DNA of 64,000 bases, from positions 40,483-104,482 of the forward strand of contig JAEULH010000068.1 in the NCBI GenBank assembly GCA_016793925.1, read 5' to 3'. The position numbers were made by a program, and so were the translations under genes. A model generated the notes under the pieces. The model was not told the origin of the DNA. It made no database searches and saw nothing but the letters and a program-made list of their open reading frames with translations. Positions within the stretch are counted from its first letter, which is position 1. Each line of letters begins with the position of its first letter. Positions 2,653-23,530 of this stretch are shown piece by piece. Source of the DNA: Rhodospirillales bacterium (GTDB lineage: Bacteria > Pseudomonadota > Alphaproteobacteria > Rhodospirillales > Defluviicoccaceae).

Positions 2653-2705
2653 GTGCTCCTGTAGGCACTCCGCTCGTACCGACTCGCCGCCGACAGGCGA
2701 CGGTG

Positions 2706-3748: not shown

Positions 3749-3777
3749 CGCACTAGGAATATATTGCCTACTTACCC

Positions 3778-3805: not shown

Positions 3806-3812
3806 GATGCAT

Positions 3813-3827: not shown

Positions 3828-3846
3828 TGGGGGGAACGTATCGAAG

Positions 3847-4622: not shown

Positions 4623-4628
4623 TAGGGT
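4600..4628 (+). promoter_or_regulatory. putative promoter TTGACA-N17-TAGGGT upstream of the portal gene
   Basis: TTGACA at 4600-4605 and TAGGGT at 4623-4628, in a short AT-rich island at the end of ORF 4209..4622. Confidence 0.3.
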
Positions 4629-4781
4629 ACGCCTGTCGCTCGGGACTGGTGTGTCCGAACTCGCCCTGACAGAAACTGCCACCCCGCGACGCAGATTTCC
4701 CGATATAGGCCGCTTGAAGGAGACCGCCGCGATGTTTGACGCGCCGAAGTCGGTCCTGTGCCTGACCGCTCAGGATAGGCG

Positions 4782-6323: not shown

Positions 6324-6631
6324 GCGAATTCGACTGGTCACCTGGCGCGGAGACGCAGCTTCCGCCTGCGAACGCGGATTGCGCTGCGCAAACCGATGGC
6401 GAGATGGCTGCAGCATATGCGCGCTGTTTCTCGACGCCGGACGGACAGCGTGTTCTTGCCCATTTGCGCCGCCGGACCTTCGCCCGCATCTGCGGCCCCG
6501 ATGCGCCTGAAGCGCTGCTGCGTCACGCAGAAGGCCAGAGACAACTCGTTGCCAGCATTGTCGCCCTCGCCAAGAGAGGCGGCTGGGCGACGCTCTCGAT
6601 TGAAGGCGAGCCTGGAGAGATCGAAGCATGA
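6320..6631 (+). CDS. small conserved phage protein between portal and scaffold (Bbp19-like position; name from memory, unverified)
   Basis: The ATG at 6320 overlaps the portal stop (ATGA) and follows AGGAGG at 6308-6313. The stop overlaps the next ATG (6628). Confidence 0.6.
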   Translation: MSEFDWSPGAETQLPPANADCAAQTDGEMAAAYARCFSTPDGQRVLAHLRRRTFARICGPDAPEALLRHAEGQRQLVASIVALAKRGGWATLSIEGEPGEIEA

Positions 6632-7368
6632 GCGAAAGCAACACCCGTCACGATGAGCAAGCGATTGATCCCGCATCGGTCTCTGCCACCGAGACGTTCG
6701 CGCCACAGGACACACAGCAGCCCGCGCCCGACCATGCGGTTCGGCGTTCTCTGCCGGATCGCTTTCTGGACGACATCACCGGCGACGTGCGAACGGAAGC
6801 GCTTGTTGATGCCTATCTCGACCTTCAGGCCCAACTCGCCGAACTGCCGCTTCGAGAGATACCGAAAAGCCCTGACGACTACGAAATCGAGGTTCGTACA
6901 GACCTGTTTGCGAGCGATGCCGAGGTAAACCGGAAGCTGCATGAGGCCGGTTTCGACCAGAACCAGGCTCAGCTCGTCTATGACCTCGCCGCTTCGCACC
7001 TGCTTCCTATGGTCGCCGAGGTCGCCTCGACATACGAGGCGGAGGGACAGATCGCGAAGCTCAAACAGGACTTCGGCGGCGACGAGCAGTGGCAGGAAGT
7101 TTCCAGGCAAATGCAGACCTGGGGGAAGCGCCATCTGCCCGCTGAAGCGTTCGGAATTCTGGCGACGACGCGTGAAGGCGTCCTGGCGATGCACAAGATG
7201 ATGGCAGGCGGGGAGCCGGCCTTGCTGGGCAACGCCGGCGAGGACAGGGCCGCGCCGACGGAAGCTGAGCTGAAGCAGATGATGCGCGATCCGCGATACT
7301 GGCGCGACCAGGATGCGGCCCTGGTGGAAAGGGTCCGCGAAGGGTTCCGGCAGATCTATGACAATTGA
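6628..7368 (+). CDS. putative capsid assembly/scaffolding protein
   Basis: Acidic, helical 246-aa protein located between the portal and major capsid genes, as T7 gp9 is. The call rests on position and composition. Confidence 0.6.
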   Translation: MSESNTRHDEQAIDPASVSATETFAPQDTQQPAPDHAVRRSLPDRFLDDITGDVRTEALVDAYLDLQAQLAELPLREIPKSPDDYEIEVRTDLFASDAEVNRKLHEAGFDQNQAQLVYDLAASHLLPMVAEVASTYEAEGQIAKLKQDFGGDEQWQEVSRQMQTWGKRHLPAEAFGILATTREGVLAMHKMMAGGEPALLGNAGEDRAAPTEAELKQMMRDPRYWRDQDAALVERVREGFRQIYDN

Positions 7369-7404
7369 GGGGTGAGCGCGTCTGGTCGCGCCGCTCCCCC
7401 CGGG

Positions 7405-7430
7405 GGCGTCGGCTGCCGGCAGCCGACGCC
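7405..7430 (+). terminator. 26-nt perfect palindrome GGCGTCGGCTGCCGGCAGCCGACGCC (attenuator or RNA-processing hairpin candidate)
   Basis: Perfect inverted repeat 37 nt after the scaffold stop, followed by CTGTCTTCC, which is only a weak U tract. Confidence 0.35.
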
Positions 7431-7568
7431 CTGTCTTCCACCGCAGGCGCGCAATCCATGCGACCTGTGAAGGCCAACGTCCGCAGCCGCTGGCCGCAGC
7501 CGTCCGTATAACCGACTCGGCTGTGCTAACGAATTTGACAAGAATCTACCGTTTCAGGAGATATCTAG

Positions 7569-8387
7569 TTGTCACTAAGCATAACTCAATCATTCATAAA
7601 AAATTTCGAAGCACTGGTCCACATCAACTATCAGCAGATGGGAGCGAAGCTGCGGCCAACTGTCCGCACGAAGGACAACGTGATCGGCGCGTCGACTACG
7701 TTCCAGAGAGTCGGCAAAGGCACGGCGAGCACGAAAGCCCGTCACGGCAAGGTTCCGGTCATGAACGTCGACCATGCCCCGGTCGAATGCGTCCTACAGG
7801 ACTTCTATGCCGGCGACTGGATTGATCGGCTCGACGAGTTGAAGACGAATATCAACGAACAACAGGTTGTCGCCAAGGCCGGCGCTTACGCACTGGGACG
7901 CAAGACCGACGAGCTCATCATCGCTCAGTTCGCCGGGGCTACGGCTTCGGTCGGCGTCGACACCGACGGCCTGACAAAGACAAAGGCGCTCGCCGCGTTC
8001 GAAACCTTGGGGGAGGTCGATGTCCCCGACGACGGCCAGCGTTTTGCAGTTGTCGGCTGGAAACAGTGGAGCGAGTTGCTCAACATTCCCGAGTTCGGCA
8101 ATGCCGACTATGTGGGCGACGACGAACTCCCGTGGAAGGGTTCGCAGGCCAAGCGCTGGCTCGGCACGCTCTGGATCCCGCATTCGGGGTTGCCGCTCGA
8201 GGCCGGCGTCCGCTCGTGCTTCTGGTACCACAAGACGGCAGTGGCACATGCGTGCGGTTCCGATGTGCAGACCGACATTTCCTGGCACGGCGACCGCGCC
8301 GCTCATTTCGTCAACAACATGATGAGCCAGGGCGCATGCCTTATCGACGCCGCCGGCGTCGTCAAGATGCCTTGTCGCGAAGCCTAG
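7569..8387 (+). CDS. phage major capsid protein
   Basis: TTG start 8 nt after AGGAG (7556-7560). The 272-aa ORF directly follows the scaffold gene. The N-terminus MSLSITQSFIKNFEALVHINYQQMGAKLR resembles capsid proteins of BPP-1/T7-order prophages as I remember them. Confidence 0.75.
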   Translation: MSLSITQSFIKNFEALVHINYQQMGAKLRPTVRTKDNVIGASTTFQRVGKGTASTKARHGKVPVMNVDHAPVECVLQDFYAGDWIDRLDELKTNINEQQVVAKAGAYALGRKTDELIIAQFAGATASVGVDTDGLTKTKALAAFETLGEVDVPDDGQRFAVVGWKQWSELLNIPEFGNADYVGDDELPWKGSQAKRWLGTLWIPHSGLPLEAGVRSCFWYHKTAVAHACGSDVQTDISWHGDRAAHFVNNMMSQGACLIDAAGVVKMPCREA

Positions 8388-8403
8388 ACTGCGGAGAGCG
8401 AAG

Positions 8404-8673
8404 ATGTCGTATAACGCAAATGATCTGAGCGTCCTGGCCTACGCCAACGGGTTTACGCTGTGGCACTACCGGACGACCGACGTCGCGAGTTCTGTGGATA
8501 ATCAAGGTTACTTCGACGAAGCGGGCGATGTGTTCCGGAGCGGCGATATGATCCTGGCCAACACCGGCACGGGCGGCACCTCCGCGGCCGGCCTGTTCCT
8601 GGTGAGCAGCGCCGCCGCCGGCATGGTCGATGTCGCCGACCTTCTCGCGGTCGGCACCACGAACACCGATTGA
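8404..8673 (+). CDS. small head-associated phage protein (89 aa; possible decoration/cement protein)
   Basis: Immediately follows the capsid gene. The motif NDLSVLAYANGFTLWHYRT recurs in similar prophage modules in my memory. Function is unverified. Confidence 0.55.
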   Translation: MSYNANDLSVLAYANGFTLWHYRTTDVASSVDNQGYFDEAGDVFRSGDMILANTGTGGTSAAGLFLVSSAAAGMVDVADLLAVGTTNTD

Positions 8674-8819
8674 CGCTTCAATCGCTTGGTCCCCGCAGGC
8701 GCTGTTGAAGCGAATACGCGAACGCGAAGAGCGCGTCTGTCCATTGGCGCCTTCCTGCCGAAGCTGACAAGAAGCCTTTCGCTTCCACCCCTCGCGATGT
8801 TTCGAGAGGATCGCCAGTC

Positions 8820-9388
8820 ATGGCTATGAGCCGGATCGATTTGTGCTCGCGCGCACTTCTCAAGATCGGGGCCAACGTTATCAGTTCGCTTGACGAAAGA
8901 ACTGCCGAAGCCGATGTCGCCAACAATCTTTACGACTATATTTGCGACGCCCTTCTGTCGGCACACCCTGGCACTTTTGTACCACGCAACGGAAACTTGC
9001 CGCACTCTCTGAGGAAGCCGTTGTTGATCACGAGAACATGTTCGCGCTCCCGGCCGATTGCCTCCGCGTGTTGTCGGCGGGTCCCAGCGGCAGCGGCGCC
9101 GGCCTCGTCTACCGGCTGTTCAACGGAAAGCTTCATGCGGATGCTGCGGAGGTCACGCTGACCTACATTTATCGCGCTTCAGAGACCGATTTCCCGCCCT
9201 TCTTCGACAAGGTTCTGATCGCGCACCTGGCCGCGGAATTTTGCATTCCGCTCACCGACAGCACGTCGCGTTGGGAAAGCCTCCGGAAGGCAGCGGAAGA
9301 CGAACTGAAACAGGCCAAACTGATCAACGCGCAGGAAGTGACACCGGCCTGCATCGACGATTTCGTGCTTGTGGAGACTCGCTACTGA
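8820..9388 (+). pseudogene. head-tail adaptor (T7 gp11-size) interrupted by a -1 frame change near 8966-8971
   Basis: The N-terminal 50 aa (MAMSRIDLCSRALLKIGANVISSLDERTAEADVANNLYDYICDALLSAHP) are in frame 0. The continuation WHFCTTQRKLAALSEEAVVDHENMFALPADCL... runs to 9388 in the frame of track ORF 8942. The join lies at a CCC run. Confidence 0.6.
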
Positions 9389-11286
9389 TGGCTCGGGTGA
9401 GAGTAGCCAGGACCAACTTTTCCGCCGGCGAAGTTTCCTCCCGTCTCCTCGGCCGCACCGACTTGCGGGCCTTCGAGAACGGCGCCGCCCTGTTGCGAAA
9501 CGTCATCATCCACCCGACGGGAGGCGTCAGCCGCCGTCCCGGTTTGCGCTTCATCGACGTCGCGAAAGGGCCGGGCCGTCTTGTTGCAGCCGAATTCAAG
9601 AGCGGCGAAGTCTACCTCCTTGTCTTCTCCCACTTCGCCGTCGACGTCTACCGCGACGACGTCAGGATAGCCGGAGCTGCCACCCCGTGGACGCTCGCTC
9701 AACTGGCTCAACTGAACTGGGTGCAGACCACGGATTCGCTCCTGGTCGTCCATCCCGATGTGCCGCCCCAGGAAATCACACGACGTGACGCAACCAACTG
9801 GATCATCGCGGAGTGGAGCTTTTCCGAGAAAGGCGGACGAAAGCTTATCCCGCACCGCAAGATCGCCCCGGAGCAGACGACGCTGAACCCAAGTGGCACA
9901 AGCGGGAACATCGCAATCCTCGCGTCGGACGAGGTCTTCGCGCCCGATCACGTGGGCATTCGGCTTCGCTTGAACAACCGCGAGGTCGCCGTTACCGAGG
10001 TCGTATCCGCAACCGAGATCCGCGCCGACGTAAAGCAATCGCTGACTTCCACGCAGCCAACCGAAGACTGGACCGAGGAAGCCTTTTCGGCGGTGCGCGG
10101 TTGGCCTGCAGCCGTTTGTTTCCATCAGGATCGCCTTGTTATCGGCGGCTCCAGGGATCTGCCCAATCGCCTGTGGTTGTCAAGAACGGCGCGTCTGTTC
10201 GACTTCGATATGGGCGACGGCCTCGACGACGAGGCCATGGAGTTTGCGATCCTCTCCGATCGCGTCAGCGCCATTCGGGCGGTGTTCTCCGGTCGACATC
10301 TTCAGGTTTTCACGTCCGGCGCCGAGTGGATGGTGAGCGGCGAGCCGCTGACCCCAAGCAACATTCAGCTTCATCGGCAGACACGTATTGGCTCCATTGC
10401 AGCGCGCACGGTGCCGCCGAAAGATGTCGACGGCGCGACGGTGTTTGTCGCGCGCTCCGGAAAGCAGATCCGCGAGTTTCTGTTCACCGATACCGAGCAG
10501 GCCTATCAGGCCAATGATCTGGCGTTGCTATCGGATCATCTGATCGAAGAACCGGTCGACATGGATCTTGATCAGGTCGAGCGGCTTCTGCACGTGGTCA
10601 TGGCCGACGGCACGATGGCGACGTTGACCGTTTACCGCAACGAGCAGGTCAGCGCCTGGACTTTGCAGGAAACCGCCGGTGCGTTCCGCTCGGTCGCCGC
10701 GGTCGGCAAGGAAACGTTCGTTCTCGTCGAACGGGTTGGCGGCATCTTCATTGAGGCCTTTGACAGTCGGCTCAGCGTCGATGCCGGTATCCTTGCTTCG
10801 GCATCCACCGCTCAGGCAACCTGGGGTGGCCTGAACCATCTCGACGGTCTCGAAGTAAAGATTGTCGCGGACGGCGCGGTGCACCCCGACGTCGTGGTTT
10901 CCCTGGGCAGCATTATGCTGTCCGCGGAGGCGTGCGAAATCTCCGCCGGCCTCGCGTTCACGCATGTCATCGAGCCGTTGCCGGCGGTGATGCCAGGCAC
11001 GGATGGCGGGGGACTGGGGCGCCGGGTCAGACCCGTTGCCCTTACATTTCGCTTCCTCGAAACGGCAGCTCTGTACATCGACACCGGCCGCGGCATCGTC
11101 GACCACCCTTTTCCTCGACGCGGCACAAGCCCGCTCGGTACCCAGGCTGCTTCGTTCACCGGCGATCAATGCCTGCGCGCCTACGGATGGCGTGGCGACC
11201 TGAGCAGAAGCGTTTGGCGGATTGCACAAAGTGAACCGCTTCCCTTCACGCTGCTGTCGGTCACGACAGAGATGAGCGCCAATTAA
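9388..11286 (+). CDS. tail tubular/nozzle protein (T7 gp12-like by size and position)
   Basis: The ATG at 9388 overlaps the upstream TGA. The 633-aa ORF begins MARVRVARTNFSAGEVSSRLLGRTDLRAFENGA and follows the adaptor gene as in T7. Confidence 0.65.
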   Translation: MARVRVARTNFSAGEVSSRLLGRTDLRAFENGAALLRNVIIHPTGGVSRRPGLRFIDVAKGPGRLVAAEFKSGEVYLLVFSHFAVDVYRDDVRIAGAATPWTLAQLAQLNWVQTTDSLLVVHPDVPPQEITRRDATNWIIAEWSFSEKGGRKLIPHRKIAPEQTTLNPSGTSGNIAILASDEVFAPDHVGIRLRLNNREVAVTEVVSATEIRADVKQSLTSTQPTEDWTEEAFSAVRGWPAAVCFHQDRLVIGGSRDLPNRLWLSRTARLFDFDMGDGLDDEAMEFAILSDRVSAIRAVFSGRHLQVFTSGAEWMVSGEPLTPSNIQLHRQTRIGSIAARTVPPKDVDGATVFVARSGKQIREFLFTDTEQAYQANDLALLSDHLIEEPVDMDLDQVERLLHVVMADGTMATLTVYRNEQVSAWTLQETAGAFRSVAAVGKETFVLVERVGGIFIEAFDSRLSVDAGILASASTAQATWGGLNHLDGLEVKIVADGAVHPDVVVSLGSIMLSAEACEISAGLAFTHVIEPLPAVMPGTDGGGLGRRVRPVALTFRFLETAALYIDTGRGIVDHPFPRRGTSPLGTQAASFTGDQCLRAYGWRGDLSRSVWRIAQSEPLPFTLLSVTTEMSAN

Positions 11287-11388
11287 GGTTGCGCCGCCCG
11301 GCGACCGCGCCGCGGACGCGTCATCAAGTTCCGCCGCACTCCGCCAGCCAGCGGTTACAGCATCCCGCCACACATAGGAGTTTGCAAG

Positions 11389-11838
11389 ATGGGGGGCTTC
11401 GTCCCAGCCGCAGCGCTGAGCGCCGTGCAGATGAGCATCAGCGCCGCGCAACAGGAACGTCAAGCGGATGCCGCACGGGGCGCCGCGAAAGCAGAAGCCA
11501 GGTCGAAAATTGCGCAGATCAATGCGGCGAAAGCCGCCGAGGATCGCTTGCGGAACGAACGGCTGCGGCGCGCCCAGGCGAGTCAACGGGCCCAGTTCGG
11601 CTCTGCGGGCATTGCTTCCGGAGGATCGGCGCAAGCCGTGCTCGCCGGGTTGTCCAAGGAAGCGGCGCTGACGGCGGCCGAGCAAAACCGCCTGAACGCG
11701 CTTCGCATCGGCCAGATCAACCAGCAGCTCGACTGGCAGCGTCGCAAGAACCTGCTCGAGCTTTCGAACTACAAGTCAACGGCGGCGTTTGACCTGATGA
11801 AGCAGTCAGCGAGCAACGCCAACCTGTTGTCAAATTGA
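11389..11838 (+). CDS. Ala/Gln/Arg-rich coiled-coil phage protein (T7 gp13-size internal/assembly protein candidate)
   Basis: 149-aa ORF preceded by TAGGAG. Called on position after the nozzle gene. Confidence 0.5.
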   Translation: MGGFVPAAALSAVQMSISAAQQERQADAARGAAKAEARSKIAQINAAKAAEDRLRNERLRRAQASQRAQFGSAGIASGGSAQAVLAGLSKEAALTAAEQNRLNALRIGQINQQLDWQRRKNLLELSNYKSTAAFDLMKQSASNANLLSN

Positions 11839-11871
11839 TCCCAATCATATTAGAGCAAAGAGAACTGAATC

Positions 11872-12078
11872 ATGACGGACACAAAGCCGTGGTTTTTGTC
11901 GAAGGGTTTTGTTGGACCTCTGATCGCTGTTGTTGCAATAGCGCTGGAAAACATGGATATCATCGCACTCGACTCTAACAGTGTATCAGACATCGTCTTT
12001 CAAATGATCGCTCTCGCCGGAGCCGCGTTTGGAATGATCGGTCGTGCAGTGGCTGACAAGCGCCTGACGAAGATGTAG
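11872..12078 (+). CDS. putative class II holin (68 aa, two predicted TM helices, basic C-terminus)
   Basis: Hydrophobic stretches GFVGPLIAVVAIAL and IVFQMIALAGAAFGMIG, with a tail RAVADKRLTKM. It occupies the T7 gp17.5 position. Local GC is low. Confidence 0.5.
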   Translation: MTDTKPWFLSKGFVGPLIAVVAIALENMDIIALDSNSVSDIVFQMIALAGAAFGMIGRAVADKRLTKM

Positions 12079-12106
12079 CGGCGGCGCCATTCGAAAGCAC
12101 GATCTC

Positions 12107-12637
12107 ATGTCCATTGACCTTGAAAAGCGAATCGATCGCCTGGAGGCCGTTCAGGACCGCGTCTTCGGCAAACTGGATGAACTGCACGTCGAGTTTGTCA
12201 CGCTCTCGTCCAAAGTGGGCAACGGACTGGTGATGTCGTCCCAGGCCCATGGCTGCGAAATAGAGCAACTCAAAGCGGCGCACAAAATCCTTTCGGACGA
12301 AGTAGTACTTCGGTCGAAGGAGTTTGAGGTCAGGCATGTTCGCTTGGCTGCAGATCTCAAGCTGCTTGAAAGCAACATCATGAAGGACTTTGAGCAGCTC
12401 AAGCTTGCAATTCCCCAGGAGATACGGGCAGAAGGCACCGCGTTCATCGAAAACCTGCGCAAGCATCGAGAAGAAGAACGTCTGGAGCGTCTCGCCATCG
12501 AAAGAGAACGACGGGCAGAAATTGCCAAGCTCGCTGTAGAGCGAAAGATTTATATCATTCTCGGCGCCATAGCTATAACTCTCGGTGCACCTCTGATTAT
12601 CCGTGCGATTGACAGCATTTTAAGCAAACTTTCGTAG
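12107..12637 (+). CDS. coiled-coil protein with a single C-terminal TM anchor (176 aa), function unknown
   Basis: Heptad-rich, charged N-terminal ~150 aa followed by IYIILGAIAITLGAPLIIRAI. GC is lower than in the flanks. Confidence 0.55.
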   Translation: MSIDLEKRIDRLEAVQDRVFGKLDELHVEFVTLSSKVGNGLVMSSQAHGCEIEQLKAAHKILSDEVVLRSKEFEVRHVRLAADLKLLESNIMKDFEQLKLAIPQEIRAEGTAFIENLRKHREEERLERLAIERERRAEIAKLAVERKIYIILGAIAITLGAPLIIRAIDSILSKLS

Positions 12638-12641
12638 CACA

Positions 12642-12974
12642 ATGAAGGAGAATAGCTTCGCAAGACGCTCCGATGTTGTCTTGGTCGAAAAAGATGCACC
12701 CCGAAAGTCTTACACTGCCGACATCAGCGCTGATCTCCCCCTTCTGCTACATCATGCCTATCAGGCCTATCGCACCCGCGTTCTGGCGGGATTTCCCGCC
12801 GATGCAAAGGAATTCACCAGCGCGCAGGCGGCATGTCGAGCGGCGCTCGCTCACGTCATGCTGCTGCTGAGGCTCGAAGAGCGGGTTGCGAGGATCCAGT
12901 GCGGTCGCACCTTTGAAGAAGTCGACGGCCTGCAGGAATTGATTGCGCAGGCCCGCGTCGCTCTCGACCAATGA
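12642..12974 (+). CDS. hypothetical soluble helical protein (110 aa); small-terminase position in the T7 order
   Basis: Track ORF. Position-only inference. Confidence 0.4.
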   Translation: MKENSFARRSDVVLVEKDAPRKSYTADISADLPLLLHHAYQAYRTRVLAGFPADAKEFTSAQAACRAALAHVMLLLRLEERVARIQCGRTFEEVDGLQELIAQARVALDQ

Positions 12975-13010
12975 AGTTCCGAATGTTTTTTAATAAGATC
13001 GGTGTAAGAA

Positions 13011-13358
13011 ATGCCGCGCTATTTGTTTTTATGTGTCGGTTTATTCCTTCCGGCAATTTTCGTTGCCGGGTGTTCGACCGCTGAAAAGGCTCGCAGCTTC
13101 GCCGACGCAGCGGTGGCGGTGCAGCAAGAGCTCGGCCTGGAGGCGCTACGTCAAGCTGAGATCGAGCGACAGAGGCTGCGCAGTGCGCGCTGCTATAGCC
13201 CGGCGCTAACGCCGGCGGCTGTAAGCGCCGCTGCGGAGGACGCTGAGCTTGGTCAGGACTGGGTCGAGGAACTGCTGCGCGACTGCCCGCAGTTCTCGAC
13301 ATTTGTGTCAAACCTCGTCGTCAGCAGGGCCGCCAGCGTCGGCATGACGCTTCCGTAG
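13011..13358 (+). CDS. putative lipoprotein (115 aa); o-spanin position in the T7 order
   Basis: Signal peptide plus lipobox: MPRYLFLCVGLFLPAIFVAGC. Confidence 0.6.
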   Translation: MPRYLFLCVGLFLPAIFVAGCSTAEKARSFADAAVAVQQELGLEALRQAEIERQRLRSARCYSPALTPAAVSAAAEDAELGQDWVEELLRDCPQFSTFVSNLVVSRAASVGMTLP

Positions 13359-13366
13359 GCGCGTCC

Positions 13367-14902
13367 ATGCCAGAGGACCTCGTTCACCCGGCACGCGCTT
13401 CGAGCGCGTGCCGAGCGACGTTTTCCGAATTCATATGGATCTGGAACCACTCGCAGGACATGCCGACGCCAGATGTGCATCTACGAATGGCGCGGTGGCT
13501 GTTCGAGCGTTGGTCAAGCGGCGACCGCGAACTGCTGCTCTTGGCCTTTCGCAGCTCCGGCAAGTCAACGCTGGTCGGTTTGTTCTGCGCCTGGCTGCTG
13601 CTTCAGGACGCAAACCTTCGGATCCTGGTTCTTGCCGGCGACCTTCCCCTGGCGAAGAAGATGGTGAGGAACGTCCGGCGGTTGATCGAAAGCCATCCGC
13701 TAACCGGCGGGCTGCGAGCGCGTCGCTCCGATCAGTGGGCGGGGGACCAGTTTACGGTCGTTCGTCGTTTGGAACTGCGCGATCCGTCCATGCTCGCCAA
13801 GGGCATTTCTGCCAACATTACCGGCCTGCGGGCCGATGCCATCGTCTACGACGACGTGGAGGTGCCAAAAACATCGGATACGCCTGATAAAAGGGAGGCT
13901 CTGCGCGAACGCCTACGTGAAGCGGAATTTGTTCTTACGCCGGGAGGCCTGAGGCTATACATTGGCACGCCCCACACATATTATAGTATCTATAACATAG
14001 AATTGAACGGAGAACTGGGCGAAAGCGAAGCATTTCTTTCCGGCTACAAGCGTCTTGAAATCCCGATTCTGGACCATCGCCAGCAGAGCGCTTGGCCCGA
14101 GCGGTTCTCGCTCGATCGCATCGGCGACATGCTGTCAAAGGCGGGTCCGGCGAAATTCGAAAGCCAAATGCTGCTCAAGGCACGCCCGCCTTCCGATTTG
14201 CGGCTCGATCCGGAGCGGCTGCGCGTCTACCACGACGACCTGATCTACAGCGAGAGCAACAGGACGGCGAGCCTCACGCTCGGCGGCCGACGCCTTGTTT
14301 CGGCCTCGTGCTGGTGGGATCCGGCCTACGGCGCGCCGGAAAAAGGCGATGCCAATGCCGTTGCGGCGGTCTTTACCGATGAAACCGGGGGCTACTGGCT
14401 GCACAGGGTCCAGTATCTGACCCACGACGTCCGATTGCTCGACAACGTCGACGAAGCGACGCAGTTGTGCCGTCAGGTGGCGTCGCTCCTTCGTGATTTG
14501 CATCTGCCGGCTATCGTCGTGGAGACCAACGGCATCGGCCGCTTTCTTGCCGGGTTGTTACGACAGCAAATCGGATGGGCCGGCCTGCGCTGTTCGGTTC
14601 TGGAGCAAGTCTCTCGGACGAACAAAGACCTGCGCATCCTGGAGGCGTTCGATGCTGTTCTCGCAGCCCGGCGCCTCTCCGTTCATGACAGCGTCTTGCG
14701 TTCGCCCTTCATTCAGGAAATGCGCGAGTGGCGGCCTGGCGCGCGACGCTGCCGTGACGACGGACTCGATGCGGTTGCCGGGTGCTTGCTGAGTGAACCG
14801 GTTCGTCTGCCGCGCTTGGCGGCGGCGCCGCCGCGCGAAGTGAGCCGGGGCGCTTGGCGCGGCTTCGGACCCTTTCGGGCTGAAGGCGATTTTTCGCCGT
14901 AG
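13367..14902 (+). CDS. terminase large subunit (T7 gp19-like)
   Basis: Walker A-like LAFRSSGKSTLV, Walker B-like ADAIVYDDVE, and a nuclease-type C-terminal half. It is the last gene of the module, as in T7. Confidence 0.85.
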   Translation: MPEDLVHPARASSACRATFSEFIWIWNHSQDMPTPDVHLRMARWLFERWSSGDRELLLLAFRSSGKSTLVGLFCAWLLLQDANLRILVLAGDLPLAKKMVRNVRRLIESHPLTGGLRARRSDQWAGDQFTVVRRLELRDPSMLAKGISANITGLRADAIVYDDVEVPKTSDTPDKREALRERLREAEFVLTPGGLRLYIGTPHTYYSIYNIELNGELGESEAFLSGYKRLEIPILDHRQQSAWPERFSLDRIGDMLSKAGPAKFESQMLLKARPPSDLRLDPERLRVYHDDLIYSESNRTASLTLGGRRLVSASCWWDPAYGAPEKGDANAVAAVFTDETGGYWLHRVQYLTHDVRLLDNVDEATQLCRQVASLLRDLHLPAIVVETNGIGRFLAGLLRQQIGWAGLRCSVLEQVSRTNKDLRILEAFDAVLAARRLSVHDSVLRSPFIQEMREWRPGARRCRDDGLDAVAGCLLSEPVRLPRLAAAPPREVSRGAWRGFGPFRAEGDFSP

Positions 14903-15134
14903 CGGCAGATGATTGCCCGATGCCGAGCAAAACTTGTGGTTCTTCTACTTTCGGTAGACGACTGCCTGGCAAAAACAGCAACATTTAGGAAACATACGAT
15001 ATATAGTGATACCGACGCTCATCGGGTGTATACATAGCGTTGAAGCGGCGGTGGCGGCTCAGGTGGCAGCCTCGAAAAGTGCCCAAGGCTGAGAATTGGC
15101 CACTGCTGCAATTCGGCAAACGCAGGACGCACCG

Positions 15135-15497
15135 ATGAGCAGCAGCGATTGGACACCTGAGCGTATAGCGGCGCTGATTGCCCTGTGGAACGAAGAGCTC
15201 CCCACCAGCGAGATTGGCCGGCGGCTGTGCATCACGAAGAATGCCGTCATCGGCAAGGTGCATCGGCTGGGGTTGCCCAAGCGACGATTGCCTCCGGAGA
15301 AGCCGGAAGCCGCTCAGGTCGTACGCCTTGGCGAGTTGCGCTCGGGGATGTGCAGTTGGCCGTTGGGCAACCCAGGGGACGACTCGTTCCACTTCTGTGG
15401 TGCCGAGACGATGACCGGAAAGCCTTACTGCAGCAGGCACTGCGACGTGGCCTATGTGAAAACCGCCAAGGATCGAGGCAAGACCACCGCCGCGTAG
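15135..15497 (+). CDS. short GcrA-family cell-cycle regulator homologue
   Basis: N-terminus WTPERIAALIALWNEELPTSEIGRRLCITKNAVIGKVHRLGLPKR and C-terminus CSWPLGNPGDDSFHFCGAETMTGKPYCSRH match GcrA family hallmarks. Alternative upstream start at 15096. Confidence 0.8.
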   Translation: MSSSDWTPERIAALIALWNEELPTSEIGRRLCITKNAVIGKVHRLGLPKRRLPPEKPEAAQVVRLGELRSGMCSWPLGNPGDDSFHFCGAETMTGKPYCSRHCDVAYVKTAKDRGKTTAA

Positions 15498-15733
15498 AAG
15501 CGCCGTCGACCTGCACTGGCGATCCGTTTACGCTCATACTTTACTGATTACGATTAAAAAGCGGCTGTGAGCCGACGTCAATAACATGACGTCCGGCTGC
15601 ACGGCCTTTGGCGCTTGTTGTACTACAATTAAACTGCGGAATTCTGCCGTTTCTTGACCAGAAAGAGGAGCGCCTATTCAACAATTATTGTGTGCTGTTT
15701 TTTCGACCGATTTTCAGAGAGGCTTTTATATTC

Positions 15734-17797: not shown

Positions 17798-19891
17798 TTG
17801 ACAAAGACTCAGACCACTGCAGCCGTGCTTGCTGCAAGCGTCTTGGCGGCCGTTCTCGGTTCGCCGCCCGCACAAGCAAGGATCGATTTGCCAAGCAAAG
17901 CCGTCGTCGCGATGGTGTTCATGAATTGTCCGGACTACGTCGATCAGTGCCCGCCCAAGCTCAATGGCTACTCGGCGAGGGAGATGATTGACAACTACAA
18001 GGCGAGCGTCAAGGACATGGCGGACGCCGGCGTAAGGGTCGCCGCTATGGACACCTTCCCCGGCGCCGGAAGAGCTGCCCGCGTCGGCTACTTCGCGACA
18101 GCGGTCAAGGAATATAACAATGAACATCCGGGCACCGATTTCTGCCAGTTTCCCGTCTACGACCTCGCCGGCTGGAAGAGTGCCGATGTCATCGACGTGC
18201 TGAAGAAATCCGACGCGTCCGGCACGAACTGCGTCAAAGACGGCCAGCCTATTATCGGCGCCTGGAACACCAAGGTGTGCGATTCGAATTACTACCTCAG
18301 CAACGTCATAAACCCGATCAAGCAGGCCGGCTTGGGTACGCCCTACTTCTGGGGATATTTCCATCCCGGAGATATTAACGCGTTCAAAACGTCGGTCAGT
18401 AATTGCAAACAGCCGTTTGCCAAGGCAGGGGTGCCTTTCTCGTGGTTCCAGTTCTTCAGCGGGAACCCGGCCCACCACAAGAATCAGGAGAACATCAAGG
18501 CCGCCGCGGATCCGGCCGGCGTTCTTTTCGCACCCGGCATCCCGACGTCACGCGCAAGCAATTGCAGTGTGACCGGCGCCTGCGCGCCCAGCGCGAAAAC
18601 GAGCCGGCCGGCGTTCATGTATCACAACGGCTTCGAGGGCTTCGTCCGCGCCTGGCGCGCGGCTCTTCCTGGCGGCGCGCTCTCGCTGAAGGGGCCGAAG
18701 CCGATCGACTATGTCTGGCTGACGATGTGGAGCGACTACGGCGAGGACGCGCTGCACAGCCCGGCGTTGGATCCCGATCCTGCCCGACCGGCCTACCGGA
18801 AGGCGGCGACGCCGTTCCCCTTCTTCAGGTACAGCTACAGCGTCTCCAACTGGACACACCGGGGATTTTGGCGGCTGGACAAGGCGTTCAGCGAGTGGTT
18901 CCTGAGCGGCCGCAAGCCGGACACACAGACCGAATCGATCGAGTGGGCCTACCGGCAACATCCGGCGAACCTCCCGGCCCCGGCCGGTGACTTCTGCAAA
19001 TCCGCAACGCCCAGCGTCGTTGGCACCGCAGGCGGCGCATTGCCGCCGGACCGCGTCTACGTCACTTCACTGCTCAACGCGCCGGCCGATTTGTACGTCC
19101 AACTGGACGGCACCACGACAGGTCCCATTTCGTTGCCCGCCGGTCAGGCGTTCGCCAACGACCTCGCGGATATCCAGACCTGGGCCGACTACGGGCGTAA
19201 CAGGCTCGGCACGCCGCATTTTGTGCTTAAGCGAGACTTGAACGGTGACGGTCGTCGTGACGAAGTTGCCTGGGAAGGCGACGGGCTGCTTGAGATTACC
19301 GACCGCCCTTTGCAGTGGGACGGCAAGTCGGTGAGTCGCAACTTTAACCACTATGCGGATTATGCCGACCTCCCGGATACTGGCGAAGACTTCCCCGATC
19401 CGCCCGCCGACGACGACGGGCTGCCGCTGCGCATAAATGCCGGAAGCAGCGGCGATCTCAGTTCGGCCGGCCTGACCTGGGCCGCTGATCGCGGCTTTAT
19501 CGGTGGCGCCTCGGTTGATCGCGGTCCGATCGCCGTCGCCAATGCCGCAGACGAGCGGATCTACCGCACGGAACGTTGGGGTCTGGACGGTTATACCCTG
19601 CCGCTTCCCGTCGGCATGTACGCGGTCCGGCTTCACTTCGCCGAGACATCCGCAGGCGTGGTCGAGAGCGGCAAGCGCGTCTTCTCGGTCGATGTCGAAG
19701 GAAGACGCCTCGACAATCTCGACGTGTTCGCCGAAGCCGGTGGAGCACGAAAGGCGTTGGTCAAGACATTCGACAATGTCATCGTGCGCGATGGCGAGTT
19801 GGATATCGCCTTCGAGCGCAAGCTGGGCGAACCGATGATCGATGCTCTGGAGGTCGAGCCGTTGCTCGCCTGTCCGGCATCGGCACTGTAA
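17798..19891 (+). CDS. secreted GH71-like (alpha-1,3-glucanase-like) protein with a C-terminal malectin domain
   Basis: TTG start. Signal peptide MTKTQTTAAVLAASVLAAVLGSPPAQA. IDYVWLTMWSDYGEDALHSP and WAYRQHPANLPAP resemble fungal GH71 VEIVTWNDYGESHYIGP and WARLYPANANAP as I remember them. The third malectin copy is at nt ~19421-19888. Confidence 0.65.
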   Translation: MTKTQTTAAVLAASVLAAVLGSPPAQARIDLPSKAVVAMVFMNCPDYVDQCPPKLNGYSAREMIDNYKASVKDMADAGVRVAAMDTFPGAGRAARVGYFATAVKEYNNEHPGTDFCQFPVYDLAGWKSADVIDVLKKSDASGTNCVKDGQPIIGAWNTKVCDSNYYLSNVINPIKQAGLGTPYFWGYFHPGDINAFKTSVSNCKQPFAKAGVPFSWFQFFSGNPAHHKNQENIKAAADPAGVLFAPGIPTSRASNCSVTGACAPSAKTSRPAFMYHNGFEGFVRAWRAALPGGALSLKGPKPIDYVWLTMWSDYGEDALHSPALDPDPARPAYRKAATPFPFFRYSYSVSNWTHRGFWRLDKAFSEWFLSGRKPDTQTESIEWAYRQHPANLPAPAGDFCKSATPSVVGTAGGALPPDRVYVTSLLNAPADLYVQLDGTTTGPISLPAGQAFANDLADIQTWADYGRNRLGTPHFVLKRDLNGDGRRDEVAWEGDGLLEITDRPLQWDGKSVSRNFNHYADYADLPDTGEDFPDPPADDDGLPLRINAGSSGDLSSAGLTWAADRGFIGGASVDRGPIAVANAADERIYRTERWGLDGYTLPLPVGMYAVRLHFAETSAGVVESGKRVFSVDVEGRRLDNLDVFAEAGGARKALVKTFDNVIVRDGELDIAFERKLGEPMIDALEVEPLLACPASAL

Positions 19892-20105: not shown

Positions 20106-21572
20106 TCACGCGGCAAGTGCGTGACGGGCGAGCTTCAGGTCGTCGACAAATCGAGCGTACTCGCGCTCCTTGGCGTCTTCGTCGGGCAGGCGGAGCAGGT
20201 AGGACGGATGCACCGTAATGAGCGTCTTCTGTTTCTGGCGGAGCTCAAAGAGCCGGCCGCGCTCGCGGCCGATCTTCACCTCGCGGGAAAACACCCCGCG
20301 ACCAGCGGTCGCGCCCATGGCGACAATCACTTGCGGCGCCACAGCCTCGATCTCGGCATCGAGCCAGTAACGGCAGGCATCGATTTCGAATATGCTGGGC
20401 TTCTGATGGAGCCGACGCGTCCCGCGTATGACGTACTTGAAGTGCTTGACCGCATTGCTGACGTAGACCGTCTTTCGCTCGATCCCGGCGTCGTTCAGAG
20501 CCCGGTCGAGCACGGCGCCGGCGGGGCCGACGAACGGCCGCCCGGAGACGTCTTCCTTGTCCCCCGGCTGCTCACCGACCAGCATGAGCGGGGCGTCCGC
20601 CGGTCCTTCGCCGAAAACCGTCTGAGTCGCAGGCTCCCATAACGGACACCGCGTGCAATGCGCCGCCGCCCGCCTAAGCTGGTCGAGGCTGGCTGCCGGC
20701 ATGGTATCTTCCTCCCTGTTGGCGCCGACCCGAGGCCGCACCGGCGCGAGAGGGTGGCGCTGCTTTGGAAGTGCAGTGGGTGGCGCCTCAAGCATAAGCC
20801 GGGTGCGTCGACCGGCCTCCGCCGCCAGCGGTCGGATCAGCGCGGCCTCGGGCAGGTTTTTCCAGTATTTCACCGGCATCTGCGCTTTCATCGCCGCTGT
20901 ATTGAGCCGCGCCGGGTTGAAAATGCTGGCGTAGTAGGTTCGCCAATAGGCCTCCAGGGCATCATCGGTCGGAACGACGTTTTTGCTGGCGCCGGGGCCG
21001 TACGACAGCGCCGCAAGATCCCAGTGGGCGCTCGCCTCCGGGGTCAAGATCGACCACCGCATGGAAGCGAAGCGCTCGGCGAAGAACGGCGCCGTCTCCG
21101 TCAGGATGTGATGATCCGGCTCAAACCAGGCGATGTAGAAGTCGTCGCTTCCAGCGTCCTTGATTTCCCGAAACCGTAAGAACGCCTTCATCTTGTGGAT
21201 GTCTCGACGCACAGCATGGACCATCGACTCGACGCGGCGGACCTGCGGGTCGGGGGCGATCTCGAGCAGGTGACGCTCGCCGTGCGCCATCCGCCAAACC
21301 ATCTCGTAGAGCAGGGAGAAGCGGTCGGATGCGCTATGGAGTACGACGCGGCGCGCAAGATCGAGAAAGCGGCGCGGCACGCGAAACGCATCATTCTCCG
21401 CGGTACCTGCGCATCGCGAACCGTTCGCGTTAGCCGTGGCGAACAGGTCGGGGGCGCTATCGTCCACGCGAAATGTGACGGTGTCGGGCGGGTGCCCAGC
21501 GGCGAGAAGCCGGCGCGCGTGAGTCCGCCAGCCGACGAAGTCGGAATTCCCCGAGAGCCTCACCTCAATCAT
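20106..21572 (-). CDS. DUF4130-type domain fused to a UdgX-like family-4 uracil-DNA glycosylase domain
   Basis: The C-terminal half has HCTRCPLW (Fe-S Cys), VFGEGP...LVGEQPGDKED..GRPFVGPAG, and NAVKHFKYVIRGTRRLHQKPS (the KRRIH-type loop of M. smegmatis UdgX). The N-terminal half matches the usual partner domain of the radical-SAM gene next door. Confidence 0.85.
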   Translation of the reverse strand: MIEVRLSGNSDFVGWRTHARRLLAAGHPPDTVTFRVDDSAPDLFATANANGSRCAGTAENDAFRVPRRFLDLARRVVLHSASDRFSLLYEMVWRMAHGERHLLEIAPDPQVRRVESMVHAVRRDIHKMKAFLRFREIKDAGSDDFYIAWFEPDHHILTETAPFFAERFASMRWSILTPEASAHWDLAALSYGPGASKNVVPTDDALEAYWRTYYASIFNPARLNTAAMKAQMPVKYWKNLPEAALIRPLAAEAGRRTRLMLEAPPTALPKQRHPLAPVRPRVGANREEDTMPAASLDQLRRAAAHCTRCPLWEPATQTVFGEGPADAPLMLVGEQPGDKEDVSGRPFVGPAGAVLDRALNDAGIERKTVYVSNAVKHFKYVIRGTRRLHQKPSIFEIDACRYWLDAEIEAVAPQVIVAMGATAGRGVFSREVKIGRERGRLFELRQKQKTLITVHPSYLLRLPDEDAKEREYARFVDDLKLARHALAA

Positions 21573-22792
21573 GTTTCGAAAAGTTCGAGTTGGCGTGGCG
21601 TATGCGCAATGCGGGCCGGCAGATCCTCGGCGCGGAGGTCATTGTTTCGCGGGCGATAGTCAGACGCGATGATGAACGGCATGACTTTGCGCAGGGCGAC
21701 GCGCAGGCGTCCCAGATCCTCGAGCCGGACAGCGGCGCGCCGGCGCGTGGCGAGAATCCGCGCAACCGAACGCACGCCCAGCCCTGGCACACGCAGCAAG
21801 CTCTCACGATCGGCGCGATTGACATCGACGGGGAAGCGCTCGCGGTGAGTCAGCGCCCAGGCGAGCTTCGGATCGACGGCGAGATCGAGCATGTCGTCGA
21901 CGCACGAAGCCACAATCTCTTCCAGCTGAAAGTCGTAGTAGCGTAATAGCCAGTCGGCCTGATAGAGCCGGTGTTCGCGAACCAAGGGTGCGGCGTCAAG
22001 CGGCAGTCGTGCATGAGGGTCGGGTATCGGGCTGAACGCCGAATAATAAACCCGGCGCAAGCCGTAAGAAGCGTATAGCCGGGCACTGGCCTGAAGAATG
22101 GCGCGGTCGCTGGCCTTATCGGCGCCTACAATCATCTGCGTGCTTTGACCGGCCGGGGCGAAGGGCGGTGCCTTGCGCTCGGCCCTGGCTTCATCGATGC
22201 GCTGGCGAAGATCGCCCATCTGCCCGCGGATCGCGCGCGCGTTCTTCTCCGGTGCAAGGTCGCTCAGGCCCGCGTCCGTCGGCATCTCGATGTTGACGCT
22301 CAGGCGATCGGCATGAAGCCCGGCAGCGGCGACGGCCTCGGAGGACGCGCCAGGCACTGCCTTCAGGTGTATGTAGCCGCGAAAACCGTGATCGAGCCGA
22401 AGCTTGCGGGCGACCGCCGCAAGCTGCTCCATCGTATAGTCCGGATCACGAATGATGCCGGAGCTCAAAAACAATCCCTCAATGTAGTTTCGCTTGTAGA
22501 ATGCCAGCGTCAGGTCGACCACCTCATCGACGCTGAAACGCGCGCGGCGGACATTGCTCGACCTTCGGTTGACGCAATAGAGGCAGTCGAACGTGCAAAC
22601 GTTCGTCAGCAGAAGCTTCAGCAGCGAGATGCAGCGGCCATCCGGGGCGTAGCTGTGGCATATCCCCATCCGAGCGGTCGAGCCGATGCCCCCGGTCGCA
22701 GCCGCCGAGCGCGCGGGTGCGCCGCTTGACGCGCAGGAGGCGTCATATTTCGCGGCGTCAGCGAGGATCGCGAGCTTGTCGCGCAGCTCCAT
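21569..22792 (-). CDS. putative DNA modification/repair radical SAM protein
   Basis: LAILADAAKYDASCASSG, then CTFDCLYCVNRR (CxxxCxxC). The stop overlaps the downstream gene start (ATGA). The ATG at 22792 is preferred because the LexA box lies inside the longer track ORF. Confidence 0.85.
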   Translation of the reverse strand: MELRDKLAILADAAKYDASCASSGAPARSAAATGGIGSTARMGICHSYAPDGRCISLLKLLLTNVCTFDCLYCVNRRSSNVRRARFSVDEVVDLTLAFYKRNYIEGLFLSSGIIRDPDYTMEQLAAVARKLRLDHGFRGYIHLKAVPGASSEAVAAAGLHADRLSVNIEMPTDAGLSDLAPEKNARAIRGQMGDLRQRIDEARAERKAPPFAPAGQSTQMIVGADKASDRAILQASARLYASYGLRRVYYSAFSPIPDPHARLPLDAAPLVREHRLYQADWLLRYYDFQLEEIVASCVDDMLDLAVDPKLAWALTHRERFPVDVNRADRESLLRVPGLGVRSVARILATRRRAAVRLEDLGRLRVALRKVMPFIIASDYRPRNNDLRAEDLPARIAHTPRQLELFET

Positions 22793-22823
22793 GTTTTCAT
22801 CAACCCGCTCGACCACATCGTTT

Positions 22824-22838
22824 GTTCCAGATTTGTTC
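22824..22838 (-). promoter_or_regulatory. candidate alphaproteobacterial LexA (SOS) box (GTTCCAGATTTGTTC on the + strand)
   Basis: Exact GTTC-N7-GTTC, 32-46 nt upstream of the radical-SAM ATG. Confidence 0.55.
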
Positions 22839-22951
22839 TGGATCGCTGCAATGCAAGGGGTCAATGCAAAACGATGGCGGCTCTCGCGCCAAGCGCTTTT
22901 GCACGCCGCCGCCAGGCCCGACGCCCGCCAACGATCAGCCGCAATCCGCCA

Positions 22952-23530
22952 TCAGTAAGGCACGCCGCCGGAGCGGGCTGCCCTCAGCGCATTTGCGTAC
23001 CACTCCAGCTCGTCGAGAAAGCGGCCGACCCGCCGCTCATGGGCTTTTTCGCGTGCCGTGCCATCCTCGTCGAACTGCGCACCGATCTTCGCAACCGGGT
23101 ACAGCGAAGGGATCGAAGGCATGCCAAGCTCGGCCAGCGTCGCCCGTAGCTGAACGGCGGCGCGCACACCGCCGAACGTCCCCGCCGAGTAGCAGGCGAT
23201 GGCGGACGGCCGCCAGAACCACTCCTCGAGAAAGTGGTCGAGCAGATTTTTCAGCGCCGGGGGTATGCCGTGGTTGTACTCGCCGCTGACGATGAGAAAG
23301 CCGTCTGCGCGGCGCAGGTAGGCTGCCACCTCCTCCAGGGGGGCCGGCGCCTCGCCATCCGGATATTCCTTGTACATGCGGTCGAGCAGCGGCAGGCGCA
23401 GCTCAAGCGGATCGAGCAGGTGAGCCGCATGACCGCGGGCTTCGACCTGACGAACCAGAAAGCGTGCAAGCTTGATGCCCTGCCGAGCGCTTCGCACGGA
23501 GCCGTAGACGATGACGATATCGAGCGGCAT
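22952..23530 (-). CDS. NADPH-dependent FMN reductase family protein
   Basis: MPLDIVIVYGSVRSARQGIKLARFL...FLIVSGEYNHGIPPALKN is typical of the flavodoxin-like FMN reductase family. The start was set at the internal ATG 23530. Confidence 0.8.
   Translation of the reverse strand: MPLDIVIVYGSVRSARQGIKLARFLVRQVEARGHAAHLLDPLELRLPLLDRMYKEYPDGEAPAPLEEVAAYLRRADGFLIVSGEYNHGIPPALKNLLDHFLEEWFWRPSAIACYSAGTFGGVRAAVQLRATLAELGMPSIPSLYPVAKIGAQFDEDGTAREKAHERRVGRFLDELEWYANALRAARSGGVPY

Follow-up and report, generated by a model that had tools for sequence, protein, structure and literature searches.

An operon encoding a radical SAM protein of COG4277 and a glycosylase-like protein of COG1573 has already been linked to the bacterial SOS response. 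Where PMC8565304 treats this operon, SOS control is reported for Alphaproteobacteria, Verrucomicrobia and Bacteroidetes, with da Rocha 2008 cited for the Alphaproteobacteria and Erill 2016 for the Verrucomicrobia. Radical SAM and TIGR03915 genes also belong to the DNA-damage regulon of Acinetobacter (PMC12392091), and an AF3 model gives a high-confidence complex of DUF4130 with the radical SAM protein (bioRxiv 10.64898/2026.08.19.745780). RefSeq already names both genes in orthologous pairs. For the glycosylase half the reference is UdgX, which crosslinks covalently through His109 (PMC4787834, PMC10359453) and is recognized by motif A, GEQPG, and motif B, HPS(S/A)(L/V)(L/V)R, as defined in PMC10359453. 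The phrase 'radical SAM' was not found in the searched publications that name UdgX.

Two other SOS proteins resemble parts of this system. SplB (COG1533) is likewise a radical SAM enzyme with DNA as its substrate, and LexA controls it in several phyla (PMC8565304), but it belongs to another family and COG, has no DUF4130/UdgX partner and lacks a C-terminal QLxLF. SRAP/YedK (HMCES) is SOS-associated and bonds covalently to abasic sites in single-stranded DNA, which makes it a functional analog of the UdgX domain. Its fold and chemistry are unrelated, a Cys2 thiazolidine being formed by SRAP and a His-C1' bond by UdgX, and SRAP can undo the link that it has formed, a reversal not known for UdgX.

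The locus described here lies in a window of 64,000 nucleotides (the whole stretch of DNA that was analyzed) from a Rhodospirillales bacterium. [quoted passage not shown] The TIGR03914, TIGR03915 and TIGR03916 models are all matched well above their cut-offs, the locus being typical of these families, and RefSeq uses exactly their names for orthologous pairs. The SOS link of the operon is supported, yet already published, so that the locus counts as an ordinary representative of a known system.

Anatomy of the operon and its upstream region

The operon and its control region consist of the following features.

22851..22857, minus strand: putative −35-like element CTTGCAT, proposed from its place 12 nt upstream of the box
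22821..22842, minus strand: predicted LexA operator, an 11-nt direct repeat read on the gene strand as TCCAGAACAAA/TCTGGAACAAA (24.9 bits, conserved in orthologues)
21569..22792, minus strand: gene 1, radical SAM/helix-hairpin-helix protein of 407 aa, COG4277 (TIGR03916)
21572-21569, minus strand: ATGA stop/start overlap of gene 1 and gene 2
20106..21572, minus strand: gene 2, DUF4130-UdgX fusion of 488 aa (TIGR03915 and TIGR03914)

At 22824-22838 the plus strand reads GTTCCAGATTTGTTC, which on the minus strand of the genes is GAAC-AAATCTG-GAAC (22838..22824). It is the core of a direct repeat of 11-nt units, TTTGTTCCAGA/TTTGTTCTGGA, spaced by 11 nt, and has the direct-repeat form of alphaproteobacterial LexA sites. 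It lies within the 159-nt intergenic region immediately before the operon, 32-46 nt upstream of the ATG of gene 1 (22792-22790). The N-terminus of gene 1, MELRDKLAILADAAKYDASC, aligns with 29 homologues, so this ATG is the true start. Compared with the published COG4277-COG1573 operon there is no substantive difference, the box being found here as GAAC-AAATCTG-GAAC at −46. The exact GTTC-N7-GTTC that the first-pass annotation had placed 32-46 nt before the radical SAM start is therefore where it was said to be. The same annotation had read the two genes as a single unit overlapping by ATGA, and the stop codon of gene 1 and the start codon of gene 2 do share 21572-21569; the two genes are translationally coupled through this overlap. 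An FMN-reductase gene lies upstream on the same strand (22952-23530). The box was also considered as an element of that gene, an assignment that was rejected because it lies downstream of the stop codon.

The position of the promoter is less clear-cut. CTTGCAT precedes the box by 12 nt, which would place a −10 element within the AT-rich spacer of the operator, and in the same-genus relatives L083-L085 CTTGCA or CTTGCG is also found 12 nt from the box. As a consensus scan upstream of the operon returned no canonical sigma-70 promoter, we can only infer that operator and promoter overlap. A comparison of the operon's 5' region with Rfam gave no credible match to a riboswitch or small RNA.

Chance and conservation of the LexA box

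The match to this pattern could be a product of chance, in which case the operon would be constitutive or under another regulator. In the window the bare GAAC-N7-GAAC pattern occurs four times against 2.0 expected, which is not an enrichment, and it occurs 97 times genome-wide. At least one box of comparable score (22.6 bits, window position 59938) stands in coding sequence, that of leuS, which shows that chance can produce single sites; the lack of a canonical promoter in the scan also fits a fortuitous match. The score of the operon box points the other way. With a weight matrix built from sites of other organisms it reaches 24.9 bits and ranks fourth in the 3.3-Mb genome, where a third-order Markov model predicts just 0.17 sites of such score. 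The regulon context of the same genome includes its own lexA (TIGR00498, 166 bits), with GAACTAAAATAGAAC upstream, and imuA-imuB-dnaE2 and nrdJ, which are also preceded by a LexA-type box. No GAAC-N7-GAAC was found within 500 nt upstream of recA, and the regulon of this genome is in that respect not a textbook one.

The comparison of orthologous operons is decisive. An exact box is present at most 130 nt upstream in 60 of the 66 alphaproteobacterial orthologous loci (background 0.002 per 130 nt), and five of the remaining six carry a box with one mismatch. All eight relatives that own the operon have the box (six exact, two with one mismatch). In the three same-genus relatives it stands at −46/−47 although the flanks have diverged, and among the nearest relatives it is the sole conserved upstream element in a phylogenetic footprint. 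Orthologous operons of other phyla or classes carry the LexA motif of their own lineage at the same place, namely CTGT-N8-ACAG upstream of gammaproteobacterial loci and TGTTC-N4-GAACA upstream of a locus in Chthoniobacterales (Verrucomicrobia). Such cross-species conservation rules out a chance match for the box and, together with the SOS regulation reported for the orthologous operon in PMC8565304, leaves constitutive expression or a different regulator highly improbable. The first-pass annotation had taken the operator as support for a damage-inducible role and had named absence of the motif before related alphaproteobacterial orthologues as one observation that would speak against it. The opposite was found, and the predicted box is of the right form, intergenic and conserved.

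In view of these results the locus is best explained as a LexA-repressed (SOS) two-gene operon of a Rhodospirillales alphaproteobacterium, a reading to which we assign a probability of roughly 0.85 and in which LexA would bind the predicted operator and DNA damage would induce the genes. The anatomy of the operon, the family membership of its products, the conservation of the motif and the regulon context are established. In the undamaged cell, a LexA dimer on the direct repeat at 22821-22842 would block transcription, with the operator either overlapping the −10 region of the promoter or sitting just downstream of it. Upon damage, RecA-stimulated self-cleavage of LexA would release the operon, after which both cistrons would be translated, coupled through the ATGA overlap.

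The operon has a patchy distribution, being present in 8 of 41 relatives, and it was found on 164 plasmid or chromid records. This would be compatible with an anti-phage defense module that is damage-inducible only by coincidence, the more so since DNA-damage and defense regulons are intertwined in Moraxellaceae (PMC12392091). Yet neither protein had a PADLOC match (E ≤ 0.01), 146 of the 164 plasmid records are typed as non-mobilizable, several being replicons of about 0.3-4.6 Mb, and what consistently accompanies the operon is LexA boxes and the mutasome. A role in defense therefore seems very remote. With respect to the mutasome, the imuA-imuB-dnaE2 cassette adjoins the operon in 21 of 80 orthologous loci, as in Bradyrhizobium and Erythrobacter-type loci; here the operon does not adjoin it.

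The radical SAM protein and its glycosylase partner

Gene 1 scores 550.8 bits against TIGR03916 (cut-off 343.5). Four segments of the protein deserve attention.

22631..22735, minus strand: N-terminal segment with the extra invariant residues C20, C45, H46 and C54 (alignment)
22574..22597, minus strand: radical SAM cluster motif CTFDCLYC, C66-X3-C70-X2-C73, its three Cys invariant in 30 sequences
21752..21799, minus strand: predicted DNA-binding helix-hairpin-helix motif LLRVPGLGVRSVARIL, residues 332-347, conserved in the alignment
21578..21592, minus strand: C-terminal QLELF, residues 401-405 of 407, resembling the beta-sliding-clamp-binding motif QL[SD]LF

The invariant C20, C45, H46 and C54 make the N-terminal segment a candidate auxiliary metal or Fe-S site. 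The AF2 model has an overall pLDDT of 80, which is low at residues 20-44. The nearest folds found with Foldseek are HydE, HydG, ThiH, BioB and MiaB, and the top 50 also include RimO, LipA and RlmN; the similarity (TM-scores only about 0.33-0.41) is that of the generic radical SAM core. Judged from this model, the core is of the HydE/BioB/MiaB type and by fold not like spore photoproduct lyase (SPL). A search of gene 1 itself with Pfam gave Radical_SAM only (E ≤ 0.001), while precomputed matches to the families PF12836, PF14520 and PF00633 are available for its homologues.

The C-terminus offers a different indication. Q401 is invariant in the alignment, and a QLxLF-type motif is present in 87 of 120 homologues, most of the others having QxxLF or QLxLGL in a tail that is otherwise variable. 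The QLELF tail is predicted to be disordered (pLDDT <50) and resembles a clamp-binding pentapeptide in a flexible terminus, which makes it a putative one. This conserved tail is the one fresh and testable clue to the radical SAM enzyme.

The second gene combines two domains with the following features.

20844..21548, minus strand: TIGR03915/DUF4130 domain, residues 9-243 (222 bits, cut-off 112; PF13566, 1.2e-41)
20130..20840, minus strand: UdgX-family domain, residues 245-481 (TIGR03914, 312 bits, cut-off 190)
20562-20576, minus strand: motif A GEQPG of the UdgX domain, from residue 333
20406-20420, minus strand: R-loop TRRLH with His389, aligned to KRRIH of MsmUdgX
20190-20210, minus strand: motif B HPSYLLR of the UdgX domain, from residue 455

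Gene 2 also matches PF03167 (UDG). Its UdgX domain aligns with M. smegmatis UdgX 6ail at E = 2.5e-51 (phmmer), and the AF2 model (pLDDT 83) superimposes on UdgX structures with a TM-score of 0.89 and an rmsd of 1.5 Å at about 46% identity (Foldseek). When the full-length model was submitted to Foldseek only UDG matches were returned, with none for the DUF4130 domain. GEQPG, the R-loop His and HPSxLLR are common to gene 2 and the UdgX of M. smegmatis (Mycolicibacterium smegmatis; 6ail, 6ajo, 6iod). Unlike in that enzyme, the domain is here fused to DUF4130 and occupies the C-terminal part of the 488-aa protein, and the R-loop Lys is replaced by Thr. Across 29 fusions the R-loop His shows at least 90% conservation. 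The earlier annotation took the chemistry and substrate of the pair to be unknown; the biochemistry of the UdgX half has been well studied.

Two points count against the preferred explanation here: the R-loop in gene 2 is TRRLH, not KRRIH, and besides M. smegmatis UdgX only a few proteins have been shown to crosslink covalently.

The order radical SAM, then DUF4130-UdgX is conserved among orthologous loci, and the fusion is found in all 72 of the 72 orthologous loci that hold both parts. These properties bear on what the radical SAM protein could do. It could directly reverse a UV-induced pyrimidine lesion as SplB does, with the UDG domain as an accessory; UV damage would fit SOS induction, and the enzyme has putative DNA-binding helix-hairpin-helix motifs. 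However, no SPL entry is among the Foldseek top 50 of the radical SAM model, neither NCBIfam nor a PDB sequence search gave an SPL match, PMC8565304 treats SplB (COG1533) and COG4277 as distinct SOS genes, and the obligatory UdgX fusion favors uracil or abasic sites over thymine dimers. We consider an SPL-like reversal unlikely. A second option is that the pair modifies DNA by radical methylation or thiolation of bases or by conversion of uracil, with a mutagenic or protective effect linked to ImuABC/DnaE2. MiaB, RimO and RlmN among the near folds are methylthiotransferases or methylases, BioB and LipA insert sulfur, and the three additional invariant Cys are potential ligands of an auxiliary cluster of the kind those enzymes have; the adjacency to imuA-imuB-dnaE2 in part of the loci would fit as well. 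The low TM-scores to these folds weaken this argument, and no methyl-donor or sulfur-donor module was recognized by Pfam or NCBIfam. Modification of DNA is conceivable, with the odds clearly against it.

A possible role for the pair

The reading that we prefer, an SOS-controlled operon, can be developed into a model in which both products would act at the same damaged site. The radical SAM enzyme carries three invariant cysteines beyond its cluster motif, the C-terminal QLELF and a predicted helix-hairpin-helix module for DNA binding; in the second product a UdgX-type domain is joined to DUF4130, the presumed adaptor. Judged from its homologues, the UdgX-type domain would flip out and excise uracil, after which His389 would bond covalently to the abasic sugar. 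In the most likely model this domain would mark and shield uracil and sites of base loss in DNA that accumulates in gapped or single-stranded form during the SOS response. DUF4130 may hold the radical SAM enzyme at the site marked by UdgX, and the QLELF tail may dock it on the sliding clamp left at the gap; both the DUF4130-radical SAM contact and the docking on the clamp are predictions. The radical SAM enzyme could then act by radical chemistry on either the lesion or the link between protein and DNA. The full combination, in which the enzyme is a clamp client by virtue of QLxLF, is brought by DUF4130 to a uracil-derived abasic site in gapped or single-stranded DNA, where UdgX sits covalently trapped, and there runs an undescribed radical reaction, is a tentative proposal that we regard as rather doubtful.

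For the LexA regulon, the locus is a further well-supported member of a published SOS module and leaves existing knowledge unchanged. Its remaining value is a biochemical question, as this is among the most widespread LexA-controlled gene pairs without a known reaction. To our knowledge UdgX is the only glycosylase that crosslinks itself to DNA, and the operon joins a radical SAM enzyme to such a self-crosslinking glycosylase. The obligatory fusion, the three extra cysteines, the C-terminus that resembles a clamp-binding motif and the frequent adjacency to imuA-imuB-dnaE2 provide starting points for reconstitution in vitro. If the proposal is true, the outcome of the radical reaction could be release or conversion of the His-C1' bond between protein and DNA, or direct processing of the lesion, and the pair would be a self-contained 'mark, shield and resolve' pathway beside the ImuABC/DnaE2 mutasome.

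Operon layout and promoter region

The first-pass annotation had described a radical-SAM gene and a DUF4130-UdgX fusion gene as one transcription unit, overlapping by ATGA and preceded by GTTC-N7-GTTC 32-46 nt upstream of the radical-SAM start. All of this was borne out, and the pair is translationally coupled. The intergenic region is a gap of 159 nt on the minus strand, following the stop of a FMN-reductase-family gene, and includes CCAGAACAAATCTGGAACAAACG.

22952-23530, minus strand: FMN-reductase-family gene (PF03358)
22821-22842: 11-nt direct repeat with 11-nt spacing, TTTGTTCCAGA/TTTGTTCTGGA on the plus strand, with the box core as its centre
22838..22824, minus strand: box core GAAC-AAATCTG-GAAC (GTTC-N7-GTTC on the plus strand)
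21569..22792, minus strand: radical-SAM gene (TIGR03916/COG4277, 407 aa)
21572-21569, minus strand: ATGA, overlap of radical-SAM stop and fusion-gene start
20106..21572, minus strand: DUF4130-UdgX fusion gene (488 aa)
17798-19891, opposite strand: secreted GH71-like protein with malectin domain (PF03659, PF11721)

The radical-SAM frame could also begin with a TTG at 22864, but alignment with 29 homologues identifies the ATG at 22792 as the start, giving the N-terminus MELRDKLAILADAAKYDASC and hence the 32-46 nt distance of the box. Past the end of the fusion gene at 20106 lies the convergent GH71-like/malectin gene, which is unrelated to the operon and limits the transcription unit to exactly two genes.

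A consensus scan of the upstream region detected no canonical sigma-70 promoter, and a search of the leader against Rfam gave no RNA element. A CTTGCA hexamer precedes the box by 12 nt in this genome and likewise in three same-genus relatives. Should this hexamer serve as the -35 element, the -10 region would fall within the AT-rich operator spacer, and the operator would overlap the putative promoter. A -10 region inside the operator is the usual geometry of repression by occlusion. Just upstream of the box, at window positions 22849-22869, there is also an 8-nt direct repeat TTGCATTG, with two copies 13 nt apart, of which the proximal one includes the conserved -35-like hexamer.

Probable LexA control

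The bare 8-base pattern of the box is not enriched, with 4 occurrences in the window versus 2.0 expected and 97 in the genome. With a weight matrix derived solely from the sites that precede orthologues of other organisms, the box scores 24.9 bits and ranks fourth among all sites of the 3.3-Mb genome. Under a 3rd-order Markov model of this genome, 0.17 sites at this score are predicted per genome, versus 4 observed. That the box is a chance match is very improbable. A 22.6-bit LexA-type box within the coding sequence of leuS, in its 5' part (window 59938-59952), is probably such a match and a reminder of the false-positive level.

The same motif precedes the genome's own lexA (TIGR00498, 166 bits), the imuA-imuB-dnaE2 cassette, the B12-dependent ribonucleotide reductase gene nrdJ and a mmcB-like gene. 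No GAAC-N7-GAAC was found within 500 nt upstream of recA (contig C29, about 44700-45190), which either escapes direct LexA control or uses a degenerate site. High-scoring boxes upstream of rpoH (sigma-32; C47:60250, 25.6 bits) and mraZ (C2:7857, 19.5 bits) make these genes unusual candidates for SOS control. A 17.5-bit site, GTTCGCTTAACGTTC, lies at window 3813-3827, at the edge of a phage-particle-like gene cluster (2653-15500).

Conservation was examined in 80 orthologous loci from a species-representative genome collection, 66 of them alphaproteobacterial or unassigned. Absence of the motif upstream of related alphaproteobacterial orthologues, which the first-pass annotation had named as counting against its reading, was not what we found: in 60 of the 66 the 130 nt upstream contain an exact box, where the background for these loci is 0.002 per 130 nt, and five of the remaining six have a box with one mismatch. 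The operon occurs in 8 of 41 relatives, always with a box (six exact, two with one mismatch), at -46/-47 in three same-genus relatives, and in the upstream alignment of the nearest relatives the box is the sole conserved block. Beyond this group the upstream motif shifts, as judged from these loci, with each lineage's own LexA motif. CTGT-N8-ACAG precedes the orthologues in Woeseia, Pseudomonadales and another gamma locus, and GAACGATCGTTC that in one Burkholderiaceae locus. One Chthoniobacterales locus has TGTTC-N4-GAACA, which we take to be the published Verrucomicrobia LexA motif. The upstream regions of three Methylophilus loci (L005, L006, L009) carry no known LexA box; what they have in common is an inverted repeat rich in AT, TTGTAACA-N(13-15)-TGTTACAA, upstream of the radical-SAM gene, which may be the site for a different or non-canonical regulator.

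Judged from sequence, four independent lines (score, regulon context, conservation and lineage-specific motifs) indicate that this copy of the box is functional, and they support the earlier reading of a LexA operator in front of a damage-inducible DNA transaction.

In the survey of relatives' genomes G001-G040, all 16 other families of the order lacked the operon. Plasmid or chromid records that carry it number 164, chiefly from Rhodobacterales, Azospirillum and Agrobacterium. This patchy distribution suggests repeated gain and loss.

Encoded proteins and possible chemistry

The fusion protein consists of a TIGR03915/DUF4130 domain (residues 9-243) and a TIGR03914 'UdgX family uracil-DNA binding protein' domain (residues 245-481), and the fusion is obligatory (72/72 loci). 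The UdgX part aligns with Mycolicibacterium smegmatis UdgX at E = 2.5e-51, and its predicted model superimposes with TM 0.89, rmsd 1.5 A and about 46% identity. By the class-defining motif definitions (PMC10359453), motif A (GEQPG), motif B (HPSYLLR) and the R-loop histidine are all kept; the R-loop reads TRRLH with His389, whereas M. smegmatis UdgX has KRRIH with His109. In UdgX, uracil excision is followed by formation of a bond between this histidine and the C1' atom of the abasic sugar (PMC4787834, PMC13705206). The catalytic and crosslinking residues are conserved among orthologues.

The radical-SAM protein contains the cluster motif C66-X3-C70-X2-C73, a conserved putative helix-hairpin-helix motif LLRVPGLGVRSVARIL and, in its N-terminal 55 residues, further invariant C20, C45, C54 and H46. 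These features mark it as a radical-SAM protein that is predicted to bind DNA and has additional invariant cysteines. The PDB matches of its AlphaFold2 model (pLDDT 80) are confined to the generic radical-SAM core (TM about 0.33-0.41; HydE, HydG, ThiH, BioB, MiaB, RimO, LipA, RlmN). Spore photoproduct lyase is absent from the top 50 fold matches, and direct lesion reversal by an enzyme of that type, lacking fold support, is quite unlikely. An enzyme that modifies DNA instead of repairing it would be compatible with the MiaB/BioB-type neighbours and with the extra cysteines, yet we consider it doubtful. A defence function, for which PADLOC gave no match, is hardly credible. These three options compete over the chemistry only, and all are compatible with LexA control.

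The C-terminal QLELF opens with invariant Gln401. Of 120 homologues, 87 have a QLxLF-type motif and most others a QxxLF or QLxLGL variant, all within an otherwise variable, low-confidence tail. The beta-clamp-binding consensus was reportedly defined by Dalrymple in 2001 as QL[SD]LF, which the tail appears to match. A literature search found no paper combining 'radical SAM' with 'clamp-binding motif'. The imuA-imuB-dnaE2 mutasome adjoins the pair in 21 of 80 loci, either in a divergent arrangement with a single LexA box in common or, for Erythrobacter, with dnaE2 downstream. Both this and the QLELF tail are in keeping with the pair acting at stalled forks or gaps.

In the most likely mode of action, LexA would repress the operon until its RecA-mediated cleavage. 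Uracil would arise by fast cytosine deamination in the single-stranded DNA accumulating during SOS and by dUMP incorporation. The UdgX domain would excise it and then lock onto the abasic site, where DUF4130 would hold the radical-SAM enzyme, whose radical reaction would act either on the lesion or on the bond between protein and DNA.

Relation to known systems

In 2013 Aravind's group connected DUF4130, within the SOS network, with radical-SAM enzymes and with UDGs (PMC3765255). The SOS network inferred for Bacteroidetes includes a COG1573-COG4277 two-gene operon, described as encoding a putative excision repair system based on a UDG (PMC8565304). For SOS control of this operon in Alphaproteobacteria the same article cites da Rocha 2008, and for Verrucomicrobia Erill 2016. 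The Acinetobacter DdaA DNA-damage regulon includes radical-SAM and TIGR03915 genes (PMC12392091). A 2026 preprint predicts a DUF4130-radical SAM complex with high confidence and proposes radical-SAM-dependent modification of single-stranded nucleic acid (bioRxiv 10.64898/2026.08.19.745780). Orthologous pairs in RefSeq are annotated with NCBIfam names. Since the operon and its SOS link are thus in the literature, the first reading was right but no discovery; both the system and the way it is regulated have been described before, and this locus is typical of it. Concrete handles on the radical-SAM reaction are the three additional cysteines and the tail that resembles a clamp-binding motif.
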